From: Pirellulales bacterium | Lineage (GTDB): Bacteria; Planctomycetota; Planctomycetia; Pirellulales; UBA1268 | DNA: 60,447 bases | Direction: 5' to 3' | Assembly: GCA_044360305.1 (NCBI GenBank) | Contig: JBIKKQ010000003.1 | Span: 1 to 60,447 of the forward strand | Part shown: positions 1,016-7,900 of the stretch, piece by piece | Layout of the letters: each line of letters starts with the position of its first letter | How positions within the stretch are numbered: position 1 is the first letter of the stretch | Notes under the pieces: generated by a model | Told to the model about the DNA's origin: nothing | Databases searched by the model: none | The model's input: the letters and a program-made list of their open reading frames with translations, nothing else | Program-made: the position numbers and the translations under genes

Positions 1016-1903
<888 letters not shown>

Positions 1904-1956
1904 CCAATCGAGGCCCGGCGGCGTGGCCCGGCGGCGTGGCCGGGCAAGGAAGGCGC

Positions 1957-2049
1957 ATGCCGAAGCCACTGTTCATCGCGATCGATCTTCCTGCCGACGT
2001 CACGCGGCGGCTGGCGAAGCTGCTCGGACTGCCGACCAGTGAACGGTGA
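1957..2049 (+). pseudogene. 5' stub resembling an RNA 2',3'-cyclic phosphodiesterase (ThpR/LigT) gene
   Basis: MPKPLFIAIDLPADVTRRLAKLL resembles the ThpR N-terminus (RLFxAIxLP); AAGGAAGG upstream; stops after 30 aa before any HxT motif. Confidence 0.45.
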
Positions 2050-2218
2050 TCGACGCGCCGGCGCGCGTCGATCGAAGTGATTTGCTCCCCACCCGGAAGG
2101 GAGTATGCTCCCGGTTTTCGCGGTCACGCCGCGCGACGTACCTTCAGAGCACTTCACGATGGCACCCACGATGGGCCTCGGCGTCATGGAAGCGGTCCTG
2201 GCGTTGGCCTTCTTTTTT

Positions 2219-2740
2219 GGCGGGCAGATGCACTAGCACGGCCGGCACAACGGCAGCTACCGCTGTGCCAATGCATCCTGGGGAAAGTGCTGGAATTGGC
2301 TCTCGTGCGACCGGGACAGCAAGCTCCTCTTGATCGTGAAAGCGGTCGTCGCCGCGGTGCTGTCGCTCGAAGGCATGCAGGACGCGGTCCTCGCCCGCGC
2401 GAGGGAACTGTATGAGTCGGCCGGCACGCACGAGGCGGAGCTGCGGCGGCTGGAGGTCCGCGAGCAGAAGTTATGGTCGCAGATCGAGCATCTTGGCCAT
2501 GCCGTGGAGCACTCGGGTGGCGAGATCACCTCGCTGGTGAAGCGGCTCGCCGAGCGGGAACGCGACCTCGCGGTCGTGCTCTCGAAGCGCGACGACCTCG
2601 TGGCCAATAGCCGCAAGGATGCCCCGCTGCTGTCGGCCCCCGAGTTGCTCGCCCATCTTGAGAAGGTCAAGGCAGGGCTGCTGGCGGACGAGACGCGGAC
2701 AACGCTGCTCCGCTGCCGGGAAGCCCGAACCGCAAGGTGA
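2219..2740 (+). pseudogene. C-terminal remnant of a large serine recombinase (zinc ribbon + coiled coil)
   Basis: In-frame GGQMH*HGRHNGSYRCANASWGKCWN (in-frame TAG 2234-2236), continuing into a coiled coil (EAELRRLEVREQKL...LVKRLAERERDL); no catalytic N-terminal domain. Confidence 0.55.
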
Positions 2741-2954
2741 GAGAACACTCGCCGCTCACCCGAATGCCGTCCCGCATCCAGCTCGGCTCGCGCATCGGGC
2801 GTCGAGGGCACCGGGATCCGCTTCTCCTCTGACCGGCAGCGGGCCTGAACACCGACAGCGATCGCACGATTCGCGATCCCACCGCCACGGGACGACGCCG
2901 CCACGGCTCGGCTCCCAACCCGCCCGGCTCATCAACTTCTCACGCGTCGGCCCC

Positions 2955-2986
2955 TTGACGCCCCCCCCCCTCCGGTACGTTAACGT
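2955..2986 (+). promoter_or_regulatory. Candidate sigma70-like promoter with C10 tract in the spacer
   Basis: TTGACG (2955-2960), CCCCCCCCCC (2961-2970), TACGTT (2976-2981) / TAACGT (2981-2986), about 100 bp upstream of ATG 3089. Confidence 0.4.
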
Positions 2987-3088
2987 CCCCGCGGAGAGGC
3001 CCTGCCCCCACACGATCTCCTCGTGCAGGGAAGGGGCTCCTCTCCGTCCCGCCGCTGCCCCACCGTTTCTTCCCCCGCCGGTGCCACC

Positions 3089-6000
3089 ATGCTTCGCAAC
3101 CTGTCCGCGCGTTCCCGTTCGCTCATCGCCACGCTCGTCGGCCGTTTGGCCGTGGCGCATCGTCGCCGGTCGCGGCACGGCCACCGCCGCCGGCCGATAG
3201 GCGCCGAACTGCTTGAATCACGCGCCATGCTCGCCACCACGGCCACCCTCTCCGGAGATCTCTCCGGCTTCACCCAGATCCCGGTCACGTTCCTCAGGCC
3301 CGACGGCAGCGTCGGCTTCTCGAGGACCGCCTACGTCGGGCAGCTCGGCTGGTCGGCGATGACCGGCGACGCCGCCGCCGCCGGCGTGCCGGCCGCCTTC
3401 AAGTCGTTCTGCATCGACGGCCTGCAGTCGGTCGCACCGGGTACCAACTCGTTCGCCGAGGTCAGACCCCTGGCCGCCAGCTCCCTGCTCGGCGCGACCC
3501 GGGCGGGGCTGCTGGCCGACTTCTGGCGACAGTACGGCCCCGCAGACGCCGCCGGCTTTGCCGACAAGACCGACTCCGCCGCCTTCCAACTCGCCGTCTG
3601 GGAGATCATCAACGACGGCCTGCCGGTCGGCACCAGGCTGGCCTCCGATCTCGCCACCGGCCAATTCAGCGTCGCCGCCGCAGGGCGCACGATGCCTGCA
3701 GCCCTCCGCGCCGCCCAGTGGCTCGCCGGTTTCGACACCACCGCACCCGGCAAGACCGCCGTCGCGCTCCACGCCCTGCAAAGCCCGACCAGGCAGGACC
3801 AAGTGGTCTGCGTGCCGATCGTCGATCTCGACGTGGACAGCGACAACGACGGCACCGTCATGCGGTCGGTGCTCGAGGAGCGAGAGGAGGACGCGGGGGT
3901 GGCAAACGGCTCGACCTCCCCCACCAAGCCCGGCCTCATTGTGCCTGTCGGGGGCAGCCGCGCGCAGATGATCGTGGAGGTCCCCGCGGGACGCACCGCC
4001 ACGCTTGCGATCCCCCAGGGCGCCGAGAGGGTGCGAGTGTATGCACCCAACGACCCCACTCCGCTCGCCTTCCCGCTCTCCGTGTCCGCCCCGGCGGGCA
4101 CCAGAAGCACGACCTTGACCTCCTGGATCGAAGCCGTCGCCCCGAGCGCGAGCATGGCCGACATCGTCTTCACGCTCACGACCACCGGCAGCGGCCCGGT
4201 ATCGAGCGACACCGTCCGCGCCACTGCGGTGGCGGTAGATCTCGACGTGGACAGCAACAACGACAGCACGATCGATCCCGACAACGGCTCGGCTGGGACC
4301 GATGACCGGATCGAGAACGAACCCGAAACGCCCGGAGTGCGGCTGCCCGCCAAAGGCCAACGCACTGAAATGCGTCTGGCAGCGCATGCAACACAGCCCA
4401 CGGCGTCACGACTGCAGATCGATTCGGGCGCCGGCAACGTCGAACTGTGGGATGCCCCGACCGGCGGCACGCGGCTCATGCTCGATGCTGCAGACGGCAT
4501 CCGCTGGGCCGCCGGGCAGCGGCCTGCTGCCGTGTGGATCCAAGCCGTTCGCCCCAGCGACGAAGTCGGCGACATCCGCTTCACGCTCACCGAATCATTC
4601 GGCGCATCGGGCAACTTGATCACTCTCTCGGACGCCGTCCGAGCGACGGCGATGGCGGAAGTCATTTTGTTCTTTCACTTCGACACGCAAACCGCCCTTG
4701 ATGACCTTGAAGACAGCCTGCCGCCGCCCACCGCGGTCGACCAGACCGGCATGCTCGTCCTGACGCCCGCGGACTCGGCGGCGCTCCAGGCCCGCCGGGC
4801 TGCTTGGCTCGCGGGGCATCTGGCCACGCCTACGGTCGCCGGCACTGTCAAATCTTTCGCCGAACTGCAGAACGCCGTGACGGCCGCCGAAGCGAAACTC
4901 ACTTCGGCCCGGGCCGCTGCGGCGGCCATGACGAGCATGCGGAGGCAGCCATCGCAGCATACCAGTCAGCAGTATCTGTCGGCCGTCGAATCGGCTTTGT
5001 ACGCGCACGATGAATACCTCCATGCAGTTCAGGTGGCACAGAAGGTGCAAGCCAACTTCCTTGCCGACCAGAGTTGGATCTCTTCCCGGGACGAGGCCCT
5101 CTTGCAGCGGTTCTTTGCGTTACCCGTGCGGATCGACGGTCTGGAGGCCGACATCACGCCCGAGCAGTGGCGGGGGCTGACGGACTCGTTCGACGGTGTC
5201 CGGGCGAGTCTCGACCGCCTCGACGACAACCTGGGCCGGGCGGCAGGCGGCCTCCGGGCCACCCGCGACGTGCTCGCGGGCGGCGTCATCGCGGTCGGAG
5301 CTGTGTACGTGTTGCCGGTAAGCGTGGCCGTGTACGCCGGAGGTACGATCCTGGCCGGTGGAGCGATTCTCTCCGGGGCGAAGCGCTGGGATGCCGGCCA
5401 GTCGGAGTTCGAGGTCGTGTTCGGCGCTGCGGCCGATACGGCCGGCGTCACCAGCTTCTCGCTGGGCCTCTGGGGCACAGACCCCGTGACGGGTCAGGAA
5501 GTCGCCCTCACGCCCGAGGACGGCACCTATGAACTGATCGTCGGTGCATCGAGCATCTCGATGCTCGTAGGCATGCCGTTTGCCAACGGCCTCCGCGGCC
5601 CGACGACACGGATTCCGATGCCCAAGCCGCAGGTGCAGTTCGTCGAGTCATTCTCGGTCGTGGGCGACACGGTGGTTGCCAGCCCCGTCCCCGTTCCGGT
5701 CGTCACCTGGACGAAGGGAGCGATCGAGGTTTCCCATCAGGGCGTCGCGATCGGCTCCGCGTACGCCGGCACCACGCGCATCGTGGCTATGATGGCCAGC
5801 GGGCCGGGAAACAACCCCAACCTGGTAGGCTCGGCCGCTCAGGCAGAACTCCGTGACGTCGGCACGCTCCAGGGAAAAACGAGGGCCGAGATCGAAAACA
5901 TGCTGCAGCAACGCGGCTACACGGCTGTGCCCAATCGAGCAAATGATGGTGGCAAGGTATGGACGAAGAGTTTCGCGGACGGATCGACTGCGGTGGTTCG

Positions 6001-6184
6001 GACTGACCCCGGGAACATCAATCTTCCGCAAGGCTATGCTGGGCGGGTGGCCCATGCCCACAAGGAAATCGTTCCTTCAGCGAACGTCGTCAATGGGGAC
6101 TATCGGGGACGTGCAACAAAGCTCGACGACCTTGGTAACCCGTCTACCATCCACAGCGCAACCCACATTCCTATCGCTTGGTAA
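3089..6184 (+). CDS. Exported multidomain polymorphic-toxin-like protein: planctomycete export motif, thioester (TED)-like domain, two Asp-rich modules, hydrophobic pre-toxin region, C-terminal putative nuclease tip
   Basis: Arg-rich leader plus ELLESRAMLA; FCID / FQLAVW / RQDQVV; VDLDVDS(D/N)ND twice; Gly/Ala-rich hydrophobic stretch; His-containing C-terminal ~125 aa (HAHKE...THIPI) with visibly lower GC. Confidence 0.7.
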   Translation: MLRNLSARSRSLIATLVGRLAVAHRRRSRHGHRRRPIGAELLESRAMLATTATLSGDLSGFTQIPVTFLRPDGSVGFSRTAYVGQLGWSAMTGDAAAAGVPAAFKSFCIDGLQSVAPGTNSFAEVRPLAASSLLGATRAGLLADFWRQYGPADAAGFADKTDSAAFQLAVWEIINDGLPVGTRLASDLATGQFSVAAAGRTMPAALRAAQWLAGFDTTAPGKTAVALHALQSPTRQDQVVCVPIVDLDVDSDNDGTVMRSVLEEREEDAGVANGSTSPTKPGLIVPVGGSRAQMIVEVPAGRTATLAIPQGAERVRVYAPNDPTPLAFPLSVSAPAGTRSTTLTSWIEAVAPSASMADIVFTLTTTGSGPVSSDTVRATAVAVDLDVDSNNDSTIDPDNGSAGTDDRIENEPETPGVRLPAKGQRTEMRLAAHATQPTASRLQIDSGAGNVELWDAPTGGTRLMLDAADGIRWAAGQRPAAVWIQAVRPSDEVGDIRFTLTESFGASGNLITLSDAVRATAMAEVILFFHFDTQTALDDLEDSLPPPTAVDQTGMLVLTPADSAALQARRAAWLAGHLATPTVAGTVKSFAELQNAVTAAEAKLTSARAAAAAMTSMRRQPSQHTSQQYLSAVESALYAHDEYLHAVQVAQKVQANFLADQSWISSRDEALLQRFFALPVRIDGLEADITPEQWRGLTDSFDGVRASLDRLDDNLGRAAGGLRATRDVLAGGVIAVGAVYVLPVSVAVYAGGTILAGGAILSGAKRWDAGQSEFEVVFGAAADTAGVTSFSLGLWGTDPVTGQEVALTPEDGTYELIVGASSISMLVGMPFANGLRGPTTRIPMPKPQVQFVESFSVVGDTVVASPVPVPVVTWTKGAIEVSHQGVAIGSAYAGTTRIVAMMASGPGNNPNLVGSAAQAELRDVGTLQGKTRAEIENMLQQRGYTAVPNRANDGGKVWTKSFADGSTAVVRTDPGNINLPQGYAGRVAHAHKEIVPSANVVNGDYRGRATKLDDLGNPSTIHSATHIPIAW
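3821..4657 (+). repeat. Two tandem ~138-codon intragenic modules
   Basis: Both begin VDLDVDS(D/N)ND (3821 and 4235, near-identical DNA) and end DI.FTLT...SD(T/A)VRATA. Confidence 0.75.
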
Positions 6185-6198
6185 GCGAGGCAACAGCA

Positions 6199-6645
6199 AT
6201 GCAACATGATCTTGATAGGGCGCGAATCGTCGCCGCCGAACTGGCTGGCAGTGGTGAGCCGGTCGTCACGAAAGCCATTTTGGAAGCGGGTCTGGCGGAA
6301 ACGGTTGTCGCCGATCTTGTAAGGCTTCATACGCTCGAATCAGGCAGACCGGAAGACGGCGTCATTAGTTTAATGACCTCGCTGGGGGCCTTCGCATTAC
6401 GCTATCCCTACGAAGGCTGTCTGCTGATGGTTGCACTCTACCCGCTCGCGGGTGATCTGTACCTTCATGGCGAATGCGATGCTGTTGACGAATACATCTA
6501 CCATCTTCACCCTGCTGGGTTGGAGACGCGATTAAGAGGCTTTGCCGCCCAGCCATCCGATCCTCATGAAATGCGGAAGAAGTACCTGGAGTGGGCCGAC
6601 TGTATTGCCGAGTCTGCGACAAGGAACCAGCCGGACCAAAACTGA
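6199..6645 (+). CDS. Putative cognate immunity protein
   Basis: 148-aa ORF starting 14 bp after the toxin-like stop, GAGG upstream, same lower-GC character as the toxin tip, no signal peptide. Confidence 0.6.
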   Translation: MQHDLDRARIVAAELAGSGEPVVTKAILEAGLAETVVADLVRLHTLESGRPEDGVISLMTSLGAFALRYPYEGCLLMVALYPLAGDLYLHGECDAVDEYIYHLHPAGLETRLRGFAAQPSDPHEMRKKYLEWADCIAESATRNQPDQN

Positions 6646-6656
6646 GATCGGACGCA

Positions 6657-6950
6657 GTGCTCGCGGGTGGCGTCATCGCTGTCGGAGCGGTTGACGTGTT
6701 GCCTGTAGGCTGGGACGTGTACGCCGGAAGCACGCTCCTGGCCGGTGGAGCGATTCTCTCCGGGGCCAATCGCTGGAACGCCGGCCAATCTGAACTCGAG
6801 GTCGTGGGCGACACAGTGGTCGCCAATCCCGTCCGGGTTCCAGCCATCACCTGGACGAAGGGAGCGATCGAAGTCTCCCATCAGGGCGTCGCGATCGGCT
6901 CCGCGTACGCAGGCACCACCCGCATCGTGGCTATGATGGCGAGTGGGCCG
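6657..6950 (+). repeat. Orphan, internally deleted copy of the pre-toxin region
   Basis: 6657-6806 matches 5270-5419 and 6807-6950 matches 5663-5806; homology ends exactly at the codons for MMASGP. Confidence 0.9.
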
Positions 6951-6981
6951 ATGCTGAATGGCGCACCAACGGCGTCCCCCC

Positions 6982-7201
6982 GCAGCCGCTCTTGACCGCC
7001 TCACGTATCGCTGCCACATCCTGGAAGCCAAAGGCGAGAACTTTCGTCTCAGGCACGCCCGTCGGCGGCAGCGGCGGGCGGCTGGCCCGTCCTGACCGCA
7101 CCATGCTTGGAGCAACCAGCTACCCCATAGGTAGATTCAATCCAACCCCAGCGCTGCACTTTTCGGCCGCCCCGCGCTGCACTTTTCAACCGGCGTTCAC
7201 A
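6982..7201 (+). mobile_element. istB: IS21-family remnant: istB 3' end plus right terminus
   Basis: 6982-7095 encodes AAALDRLTYRCHILEAKGENFRLRHARRR (IstB C-terminal motif); GCGCTGCACTTTTC repeated at 7151-7164 and 7174-7187; ends ...CCGGCGTTCACA at 7201 (CA terminus). Confidence 0.8.
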
Positions 7202-7564
7202 GGCAGGACTATGCGGTGGACCGGCCACTCGGCGTCCTGCTTCACCACGAGCGGGACCGGCTGTGCCTGCTTGTTGGGAAGCGGATGGGGAGGGGCATTG
7301 GCCGAGGCGCCCGCGGCCATCAGCGCCGCGGCAAACATCGCCGAGCCGAGCGTGAATGCATGCTGGCGGGCCGGCGTACTCGGGCAGAACTGCTGCGGTC
7401 ATGGGAGGGGCTCCTGATGGTGGTGAACAACCGCAAAACATGGTGGCCAACGGTTGGACGCGCCGGATCCGAAAAAAGTCCCCGGGTCGGGCCAAATTTT
7501 TGGATATGGGCGAATCCTGGGGCCGGGCCGGCGGATATGCCGGTGTTCTTCGCAGGCCCCCGGC

Positions 7565-7900
7565 TCAGCGGCGCCAGCGGCGGACGACCCGCGGGCTCGA
7601 CCGCGGCACCGACCGCGAGCCGCCGGCCTCGACGATCGCGCCGGCTCCGGCGCCGCCCCCCACGACGCCCCCCACCCAGACGCCCGATGACCGCGGCACG
7701 GACCGGGTCGGAGCGTTGTAGTACGGCCAGACGCGACGCCCCTCCCGCTGCGCCCGCTCCCACTGCATCGAGCCGTAGTTGATGCCCGAGAGGTTGAAGG
7801 TGCGGTAGGGGTTCTGCGGCGAGATGGCCGCGCCGGGCGTGGCGGCCAGGGCGACGGCGAGCGTGACGGCGGGCAGGAGAACGCGGTGCAAACGGAGCAT
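7565..7900 (-). CDS. Small exported hypothetical protein
   Basis: Signal peptide (LLPAVTLAVALAATPGAA) then ISPQNPYRTFNLSGINYGSMQWE. Confidence 0.6.
   Translation of the reverse strand: MLRLHRVLLPAVTLAVALAATPGAAISPQNPYRTFNLSGINYGSMQWERAQREGRRVWPYYNAPTRSVPRSSGVWVGGVVGGGAGAGAIVEAGGSRSVPRSSPRVVRRWRR

Follow-up and report, generated by a model that had tools for sequence, protein, structure and literature searches.

We report here a predicted toxin and its immunity gene, found in a 60,447-nucleotide stretch of DNA (the window; contig JBIKKQ010000003.1, C87 among our contig labels) from a metagenome-assembled genome (MAG) of a Pirellulales bacterium (GCA_044360305.1; 3.79 Mb in 325 contigs, 98% complete). 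The toxin gene is a long open reading frame (ORF) on the plus strand at 3089-6184, coding for a protein of 1031 residues (P0001), and it is followed at 6199-6645 by a small ORF on the same strand. On balance, our results favour a polymorphic toxin that is modular and exported and is accompanied by its immunity gene; a homologue of thioester domains (TEDs) would serve as its receptor-end module.

The ATG at 3089 is taken as the start of the long ORF, and an in-frame GTG at 3023 is unlikely, because all paralogues in the genome begin with MLRNLS. From this ATG the frame is intact across 1031 codons up to the TAA at 6182-6184. Neither the toxin protein nor the product of the small ORF has a credible match in Pfam or NCBIfam (E≤1). 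An earlier note on this DNA, made from the sequence alone, had placed four motifs in the protein, and their positions are exact (ELLESRAMLA 3206-3235, FCID 3407-3418, FQLAVW 3584-3601 and RQDQVV 3791-3808). The other parts that it described are found as well, namely two Asp-rich modules, one strongly hydrophobic stretch (residues 728-762), a tip of lower GC content (0.55-0.63 over 5701-6750, compared with 0.63-0.73 for the remainder of the gene) and a tightly linked small ORF, which begins at ATG 6199 behind a GAGG and shortly after the stop codon of the toxin gene.

Predicted toxin tip, tip exchange and immunity gene

The tip (residues 910-1031; 5816-6184 with the stop codon, plus strand) follows the pattern GGxVWTK..DGxT..VRxDP...AD...HxHKExVPT..V..GNY...D...HIP. 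A search of the whole library gave 408 relatives of the protein at E≤1e-3 and, among the 150 matches listed, the last ~120 residues are present in 56, nearly always at the C-terminus. Fourteen of the 34 tip carriers that were scanned have RHS, PAAR, Tox-PAAR-like, PT-HINT, PT-TG, TPS with PT-VENN (CdiA), DUF6861 or eCIS_core domains, and the remaining 20 are without a Pfam domain. Seven residues are invariant in 33 sequences of the tip (T967, R971, D973, H989, H991, E993 and G1003), and five more are nearly so (K960, K992, N1004, Y1005 and H1026). The comparison with known toxin families that the earlier note had proposed gave no relative: no Pfam toxin family is shared by the 33 carriers scanned, and the tip profile has 0 matches among the sequences of the PDB. 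Language-model neighbours of the tip in the Atlas (0.88-0.91) carry Ntox30, Ntox47, Tox-HNH-EHHH or Ntox37 on a minority of their members, and are leads only. From the His-x-His-Lys-Glu / Asn / His pattern, our guess is that the tip is a nuclease. In our reading, the H-x-H...N...H spacing recalls His-Me-finger nucleases, and the set of His, Lys, Arg and Thr residues would equally suit a metal-free RNase.

Homologues of the pre-tip (residues 720-909) are alike until ...R(I/V)V.(M/L)M(A/S)SGP, beyond which they diverge; in the window, this boundary is the ...MMASGP at 5789-5806 that ends the pre-tip. When representatives having the full pre-tip and a tail of at least 40 residues were clustered, 12 homologues and the query's own tip gave 8 unrelated tail clusters. 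The variable tips that the earlier note suggested looking for are thus present on a conserved pre-tip. The tail of P0079 is Pfam Ntox21, behind a PT-TG inside the aligned pre-tip, and that of P0039 has an AHH-like motif, recognized by eye. No other copy of the alternative tips was found in the bacterium's own genome.

A trace of such exchange lies behind the small ORF. There, a truncated and internally deleted copy of the pre-tip (6657-6950, plus strand, inside ORF 6570-6995) is delimited by two direct repeats, 5270-5435 with 6657-6822 (83%) and 5656-5806 with 6800-6950 (90%). This orphan remnant ends in the first ~14 residues of a P0020/P0045-type tip (tail MLNGAPTASPRS), and past it nothing more of the older tip was found than these ~14 residues of a P0020-type start. 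Between the repeats, in the DNA with the tip and the small ORF, the GC content is 0.55-0.63, compared with ~0.70 in the surroundings. The arrangement resembles what would be left where a cassette of tip and immunity gene had replaced an older end. As read from these alignments, tips are exchanged at the ...SGP boundary and an orphan remnant is left. Downstream (3') of the remnant, at 7147-7192, there are two non-coding tandem copies of 23 nt, 87% alike.

The small ORF codes for 148 residues from ATG 6199, with the core LM..LY..A....H.VCDAI(E/D)LW, and we consider it the cognate immunity gene. The tip profile, scanned over one genome per species, found 29 loci, which come from MAGs and isolates of other genomes and are labelled Planctomycetota, Myxococcota/Deltaproteobacteria, Betaproteobacteria, Bacteroidota-type (Flavobacteriales, Cytophagales, Fibrella), Firmicutes-type (Tissierellia, Oscillospiraceae) and Acidobacteriota. 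In 28 of these loci an ORF begins within a few bases of the toxin stop, and the remaining one ends 145 nt further on at a contig edge. Phmmer alone assigns the downstream ORF to the family of ORF 6199-6645 in 15 loci, and two profile rounds raise this to 22 of the 29. Six tip loci (L015, L027, L030, L035, L036 and L038) carry other downstream ORFs, of 119-210 residues, which may be a second immunity family for the tip. The family of ORF 6199-6645 has no Pfam match, and in the PDB it gave just weak S100-A9 noise. The gene is single-copy in its own genome.

A structure prediction of the complex, for which the tip and the immunity protein were each entered as an alignment, supports binding of the immunity protein to the tip. 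The predicted complex reached an ipSAE of 0.92 in 3 runs, while the best of 3 controls had 0.07; in the calibration of the tool, 58 of 80 solved complexes attained this mark, as did 2 of 110 mismatched pairs. At least 94% of the predicted contacts are common to the runs, and the partner has a pLDDT of 90. The modelled interface involves tip residues 67, 69, 87, 100-105 and 122 (alignment numbering). It would include the invariant Arg, Asp and His, the nearly invariant Asn and Tyr and the last His, so that the immunity protein would cover the conserved face of the tip. Because of the shared tip, the variable tips, the conserved downstream family, the orphan remnant and the predicted complex, it is highly probable that the two genes are a polymorphic toxin and its cognate immunity gene, as the earlier note had supposed.

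Thioester-domain homologue, export leader and middle region

The N-terminal domain (residues 50-243; 3236-3817, plus strand) contains the candidate bond partners Cys108 (3410-3412, in FCID) and Gln236 (3794-3796, in RQDQVV), as well as a central helix motif, AAFQLAVWE (~3578-3604, plus strand). Two rounds of profile search gave an alignment of 124 relatives, with identities down to ~20%. Cys108 is present in all 124, an aromatic residue (F, Y or W) at position 107 in 123 and D or E at position 110 in 116. A165, F166, Q167 and W171 of the FQLAVW motif are each found in 124 of 124, and in RQDQVV the counts are 123 for Q236, 121 for D237 and 119 for Q238. Judged from this alignment, the conservation of the motifs is not chance. 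The segment AAFQLAVWEI sits in a predicted helix (model residues 116-132).

According to Walden 2015, TEDs carry the motifs [YFL]C-Phi-zeta, TQxx-Phi-W and Phi-Q-zeta-Phi-Phi in this order, and the bond-forming Gln is that of the last motif, not that of the TQ helix. FCID (residues 107-110) fits the first motif, [YFL]-C-hydrophobic-hydrophilic. Since the bond-forming Gln belongs to the last motif, Cys108 and Gln236 are the candidate pair. Gln236 would be preferred over Gln238 because it is better conserved and because, at the ends of the structurally aligned ranges, it is paired with Gln267 of 5a0g and Gln575 of 2xi9. The toxin protein has just two cysteines; Cys241 is not conserved and Cys108 is without a conserved Cys partner, so a disulfide role for Cys108 is unlikely.

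Homology to known TEDs was traced through the relatives. The Pfam TED family (PF08341) matches 61 of the 124 at E≤0.01 and, of 8 relatives scanned singly, P0187, P0191 and P0253 exceed its 22-bit cut-off. A profile made from the planctomycete multidomain group alone, from which all small proteins were left out, recovers the same three with 62.5 bits (P0187), 54.3 bits (P0253) and 50.4 bits (P0191), that is, E of 1e-11 to 7e-8 for a 5.8-billion database. As the relation to Pfam is only transitive, we call the N-domain a divergent homologue and not a Pfam-defined member. Its model has, by the fold criterion applied, the predicted fold of a TED. A first model, from 14 sequences, was discarded (pLDDT 49.5, best Foldseek E 1.5), and profiles of the N-domain run against the PDB sequences found no TED.

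The nearest stand-alone relatives are small. About 100 of the added relatives (P0163-P0280) are proteins of ~235 residues in which a TED stands between a signal peptide and a PEP-CTERM or MYXO-CTERM tag, and those whose source is named come from MAGs of Phycisphaerae or other Planctomycetota, bar one labelled Leptolyngbya. Roughly half of these small proteins match Pfam TED. Four relatives bear the NCBI name 'Cys-Gln thioester bond-forming surface protein'. In a scan of the small TED relatives, NCBIfam gave sub-threshold matches to PEP-CTERM families only, and the source of the NCBI thioester name was not found. Language-model neighbours of the N-domain in the Atlas (0.82-0.85) include PEP-CTERM and VPDSG-CTERM clusters; these too are leads only. 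In other relatives, the TED is fused to lipases and to a DUF922 domain. Given its fold, the profile homology traced through relatives and the invariance of Cys and Gln, the N-domain is almost certainly a TED homologue, in agreement with what the earlier note had read from the motifs. Judging from the conserved residues, the Cys108-Gln236 thioester probably forms.

Ahead of the N-domain lies the export leader (residues 1-49; 3089-3235, plus strand), which begins MLRNLSARSRSL..., is Arg-rich and ends ...RRRPIGAELLESRAMLA, a likely planctomycete cell-surface signal motif. The consensus described for this signal, which marks cell-surface proteins, is RRLxxExLExRxLLA (PMC8567305), and RRRPIGAELLESRAMLA agrees with it bar one additional residue and an M for L. 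Pfam PF07595 does not match the toxin protein (E≤1) and matched 1 of the 124 N-domain relatives. The E.LE.R.ML[A] motif occurs in 14 ORFs of the genome, and a leader of the form MLRNLSxRSRSL...RRRPIGAExLESRAMLA begins at least 11 paralogue loci. Behind the leader stands either the N-domain with FCID, FQLAVW and QDQVV (contigs C87, C113, C37 and C170) or an unrelated one of ~300 residues, 'DINGGLSWNGW' (C103, C134, C119, C30 and C115; loci L040-L043 and L046). As many copies of the latter kind stop at contig edges, their family is larger than the assembled set. In the paralogues, the N-domain is followed by VDLDVDSDN modules and then by differing ends. These are a canonical PT-HINT with a WHH/Colicin-DNase toxin in C103, a DUF900 hydrolase in C119, DUF922 in C37 and, by eye, GxSxG hydrolase-like ends in C30 and C115. 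In the C103 locus (G000:C103 ~6270-7600, L040), the WHH toxin is followed by a small ORF and then by a second, 5'-truncated cassette of Hint-end and WHH, which is a classic orphan array. The small ORF behind this WHH toxin has the motif LP.DY..FL..NGG, which may be that of SMI1/KNR4 (SUKH) immunity proteins.

Behind the N-domain, two tandem Asp-rich modules (3818-4648, plus strand; residues 244-381 and 382-520, ~138 residues each) presumably act as a spacer or stalk. They start with VDLDVDSDN (3821) and VDLDVDSNN (4235), and the corresponding DNA repeats (D3 and D5) lie 411-414 nt apart. The modules have no Pfam family match and are common to the paralogues in C103, C134, C119 and C113 and to many metagenome proteins. 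They are followed by an Ala-rich region (4649-5269, plus strand; residues 521-727), which the earlier note took to be helical and which is part of a conserved pre-toxin region, and by a hydrophobic Gly-rich hairpin (residues 728-762, assigned by hydropathy) with a PT-TG-like pre-tip (5270-5815, plus strand). The toxin protein has no match to PT-TG (PF14449) at E≤1; its homologue P0079 has a PT-TG in the stretch aligned to residues 720-903. The pre-toxin region is homologous to internal parts of RTX, fn3/PKD and cadherin-type proteins (P0034, P0035, P0027, P0029 and P0039). Residues 470-909 and the modules are common to proteins whose front part has RTX repeats, fn3/PKD arrays or cadherin-like domains. 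Residues 241-904 have no match in the PDB. Because the middle region travels with differing front ends and tips, we infer that it is a delivery or translocation module, in which residues 728-762 could, from their hydropathy, form a membrane hairpin.

The genes flanking the locus are housekeeping ones (an esterase, DUF808, thymidylate kinase and DNA polymerase III delta'), and among the neighbouring genes no secretion machinery adjoins the toxin gene. Directly upstream of the toxin gene, on the plus strand at 2330-2740, there is a putative gene for a charged protein of 136 residues. On the minus strand at 7565-7900, an ORF of 111 residues has a hydrophobic N-terminal segment (MLRLHRVLLPAVTLAVALAATPGAA...) and may code for a small exported protein. 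Neither ORF has a Pfam match.

The fusion in nature and the possible role of the thioester domain

The stretch is present in 18 lake-water metagenome runs (at least 86% of sampled words) and, at 22-24% of sampled words, in two RNA-library runs of a single study. A unitig of 1607 nt (3772-5378), identical in two independent runs, extends from the last strand of the TED through both modules into the pre-toxin region. Its start encodes ...SPTRQDQVVCVP, the last strand of the TED including RQDQVV. As this unitig begins inside that strand, the toxin half certainly has a TED ahead of it. Contigs from the RNA libraries match the window with 0 differences at 4731-4860, 5185-5567 and 6309-6489, the last one inside the immunity gene. 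The locus is real, and it is probably expressed.

Within the genus, a query with the whole protein (E≤1e-10) matched 4 of the 6 other genomes; in the remainder of the order, it matched none of the 144 genomes searched, which represent 94 other genera. In the congener G075 (L049, G075:C6:67611-72689), the minus-strand ORF 1162-4434 is a full-length gene with the leader, the same two modules and the pre-toxin region. Its N-domain (~230 residues, starting ...NGSFEEDVV) differs from that of the window copy and is without the Cys and Gln motifs, and its tip is of the P0008 type. This alternative N-domain has no match in the PDB; its 'NGSFE' start may resemble that of carbohydrate-binding jelly rolls. 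The swap in G075, together with the two alternative N-domains in the bacterium's own genome, suggests that the front is an exchangeable targeting module. In a second congener, G103 (L048, G103:C6:165627-169700), the minus-strand ORF 1420-3264 holds a 5'-truncated pre-tip and the same tip, starting from residue ~650 of our protein, with 80% identity and a tip that diverges past ...GNY. This copy looks like an orphan or decayed cassette.

We propose the following mechanism. The planctomycete N-terminal signal would export the protein, and the internal thioester of Cys108 and Gln236 would react with a nucleophile on the surface of a neighbouring cell, giving a covalent tether. The two Asp-rich modules would act as a spacer, while the Ala-rich region, the hydrophobic hairpin and the PT-TG-like region would take the tip across the target envelope. 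The tip would then kill in the cytoplasm, and the immunity protein would block it in sister cells. That the job of the thioester is tethering to the target is an idea to which we give a little less than even chances. Somewhat more tentatively still, it is tempting to propose covalent capture as the delivery step, by which a released toxin 'harpoons' its victim through the Cys-Gln thioester before the tip enters. The toxins of the genus would then be polymorphic at both ends, with targeting modules (the TED or unrelated domains) swapped at one end and killing domains at the other.

Several observations weigh against the explanation that we favour. The complete chain of TED, pre-tip and tip was found nowhere else: it is absent from the congeners searched, and 0 of 26 TED-bearing representatives, many of them fragments, carry the pre-tip or the tip. 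In two DNA runs, coverage of the TED-coding DNA exceeds that of the unique part 5-7 times (46.9 vs 9.35 and 222 vs 32), so that the TED is multi-copy; for the copy that supplies 3089-3765, we rely on the MAG assembly. The RNA libraries may contain DNA, so that carry-over is possible behind the apparent expression. Pfam TED gives no match to the window copy even at E≤10, NCBIfam gives none either, and PF08341 finds nothing at E≤1 over the whole genome. As regards the motifs, QDQVV fits Phi-Q-zeta-Phi-Phi only loosely, the helix motif has F in the position of the T of TEDs, and the choice of Gln236 over Gln238 is inferred from the ends of structurally aligned ranges. Between the TED and the tip there is no releasing protease or HINT that could free a tethered tip. 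Finally, no fold or activity is assigned to the tip, and 'nuclease-like' is a guess from conserved residues and weak language-model neighbours.

The direction of attachment could also be the opposite one. The TED might tie the protein covalently to a glycan or protein of the producer's own surface, with the toxin pointing outwards for contact-dependent killing as in CdiA. Such self-anchoring would suit an architecture with an anchor at the N-terminal end, a spacer, a toxin at the far C-terminal end and no other anchor in the protein. Among the stand-alone relatives, the nearest are anchored at the surface by PEP-CTERM or MYXO-CTERM, the leader motif marks cell-surface proteins in the description of PMC8567305, and the fusions of TEDs to lipases and DUF922 would equally suit a general surface-display tag. 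However, all characterised TEDs, as described by Walden 2015, bind foreign targets and not their bearer, and in G075 the position of the TED is held by an unrelated domain without the Cys and Gln motifs. We consider self-anchoring unlikely.

It is also improbable, in our estimation, that the protein is an ordinary secreted polymorphic toxin whose N-domain keeps the TED fold as a non-covalent binding or structural module, without a reactive bond. The lack of a direct Pfam match and the deviating motifs (QDQVV, and FQ for TQ) would agree with this. Yet the invariance of Cys108 (124/124) and Gln236 (123/124), with no conserved disulfide partner, is hard to explain in a bond-free domain.

More remote is an artefact, either a dead gene or a chimera in which the assembler joined a TED and a toxin half from different paralogues. 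The leader and TED DNA is multi-copy, other copies stop at contig edges (C113, C37, C170, C227 and C153), short contigs break at 3765/3772 and no single one among those listed spans 3765-3772. Against a chimera, the unitig identical in two independent runs leads from the last strand of the TED through both modules, and the junction of TED and module recurs in C113, P0004, P0009, P0014 and P0158; against a dead gene, the frame is open over all 1031 codons. It is barely credible that the C-terminus is a benign enzyme or binding module with the small ORF as its chaperone or partner. Although neither a known toxin family nor an activity is assigned to the tip, this domain also forms the C-terminus of Rhs, PAAR, CdiA/PT-VENN, PT-HINT and eCIS proteins, takes turns with Ntox21 and AHH-like tips behind one and the same pre-tip and retains a private partner downstream. 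As for established routes, delivery by contact-dependent inhibition (CDI), Rhs or the type VI secretion system (T6SS) was rejected, the protein being without a TPS, RHS or PAAR domain. The features of CdiA/CdiB (TPS domain, FHA repeats, VENN pre-toxin) are all missing from the toxin protein and, among the tip carriers scanned, occur only in P0086.

Relation to known systems and meaning

The reading that we prefer, an exported modular toxin with a TED at its receptor end, joins two kinds of protein known separately. The TED adhesins of Gram-positive bacteria (SfbI, Cpa, CpTIE and SaTIE; PDB 5a0l, 2xi9, 5a0g and 6fx6; Pfam PF08341) are the first. Ours differs from them in its planctomycete host, in having a planctomycete leader instead of Sec plus LPXTG, and in carrying at the far end a toxin with an immunity gene and not a cell-wall anchor. 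In addition, the window copy is without a direct Pfam match and its thioester is putative. The second are the polymorphic toxins (Rhs, CdiA, PAAR and MafB-type; Zhang 2012, PMC3482391), with which it shares a conserved N-terminal part, variable tips, a downstream immunity gene, an orphan cassette, a tip common to several trafficking types and a PT-TG-like pre-tip. It differs from these in that the trafficking end is a planctomycete leader plus TED, and in that the N-terminal module is also swapped between congeners.

Two other systems deserve comparison. The single-domain TED proteins of Phycisphaerae, with their PEP-CTERM or MYXO-CTERM sorting tags, are the nearest stand-alone relatives of the N-domain and have the same invariant residues, but they are without modules and without a toxin. 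Colicins and pyocins follow the same logic, in that the released protein binds with one end, crosses the membrane by its middle part and kills enzymatically with the other end, and an immunity gene is tightly linked to its gene. They have no sequence or fold relation to our protein, in which, unlike in them, binding would be covalent.

The earlier note did not know this architecture as a described class of toxin delivery, and the open-access papers searched present TEDs only as Gram-positive adhesins and contain no toxin fusion. Walden 2015 places TEDs 'exclusively in Gram-positive bacteria', a 2026 preprint still puts their distribution among Gram-positive bacteria, and a 2022 survey describes them as adhesive domains of fibrillar adhesins. 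In the main text of Zhang 2012 (PMC3482391), 'thioester' occurs only within 'thioesterases', and there is no HKE or GNY motif. In the open-access library searched, 'thioester domain' is never paired with 'polymorphic toxin' or 'PEP-CTERM'; the papers joining 'thioester domain', 'toxin' and 'immunity protein' are unrelated by title and abstract, and the small TED proteins of a diderm phylum that NCBI names were not found. The combination of TED and toxin is therefore new to the open-access sources searched.

In summary, our results define, independently of the bond, a widespread family of toxin tips and its immunity family, as well as a shared pre-toxin module with a hydrophobic hairpin that stands behind RTX, fn3/PKD, cadherin and planctomycete front ends, all of them without a counterpart in Pfam or the PDB. 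They also point to a divergent TED branch in Planctomycetota, which occurs within small surface proteins anchored by PEP-CTERM and, in a single genus, as the front module of effectors that are exported (toxin, lipase-like and DUF922 proteins). If the bond forms, the protein would allow covalent targeting between antagonistic bacteria to be tested, and it would give a new reactive protein tag, taken from a lineage so far untapped. If covalent capture is true, the range of thioester domains would reach beyond host adhesion by Gram-positive bacteria and include warfare between bacteria in a diderm phylum.

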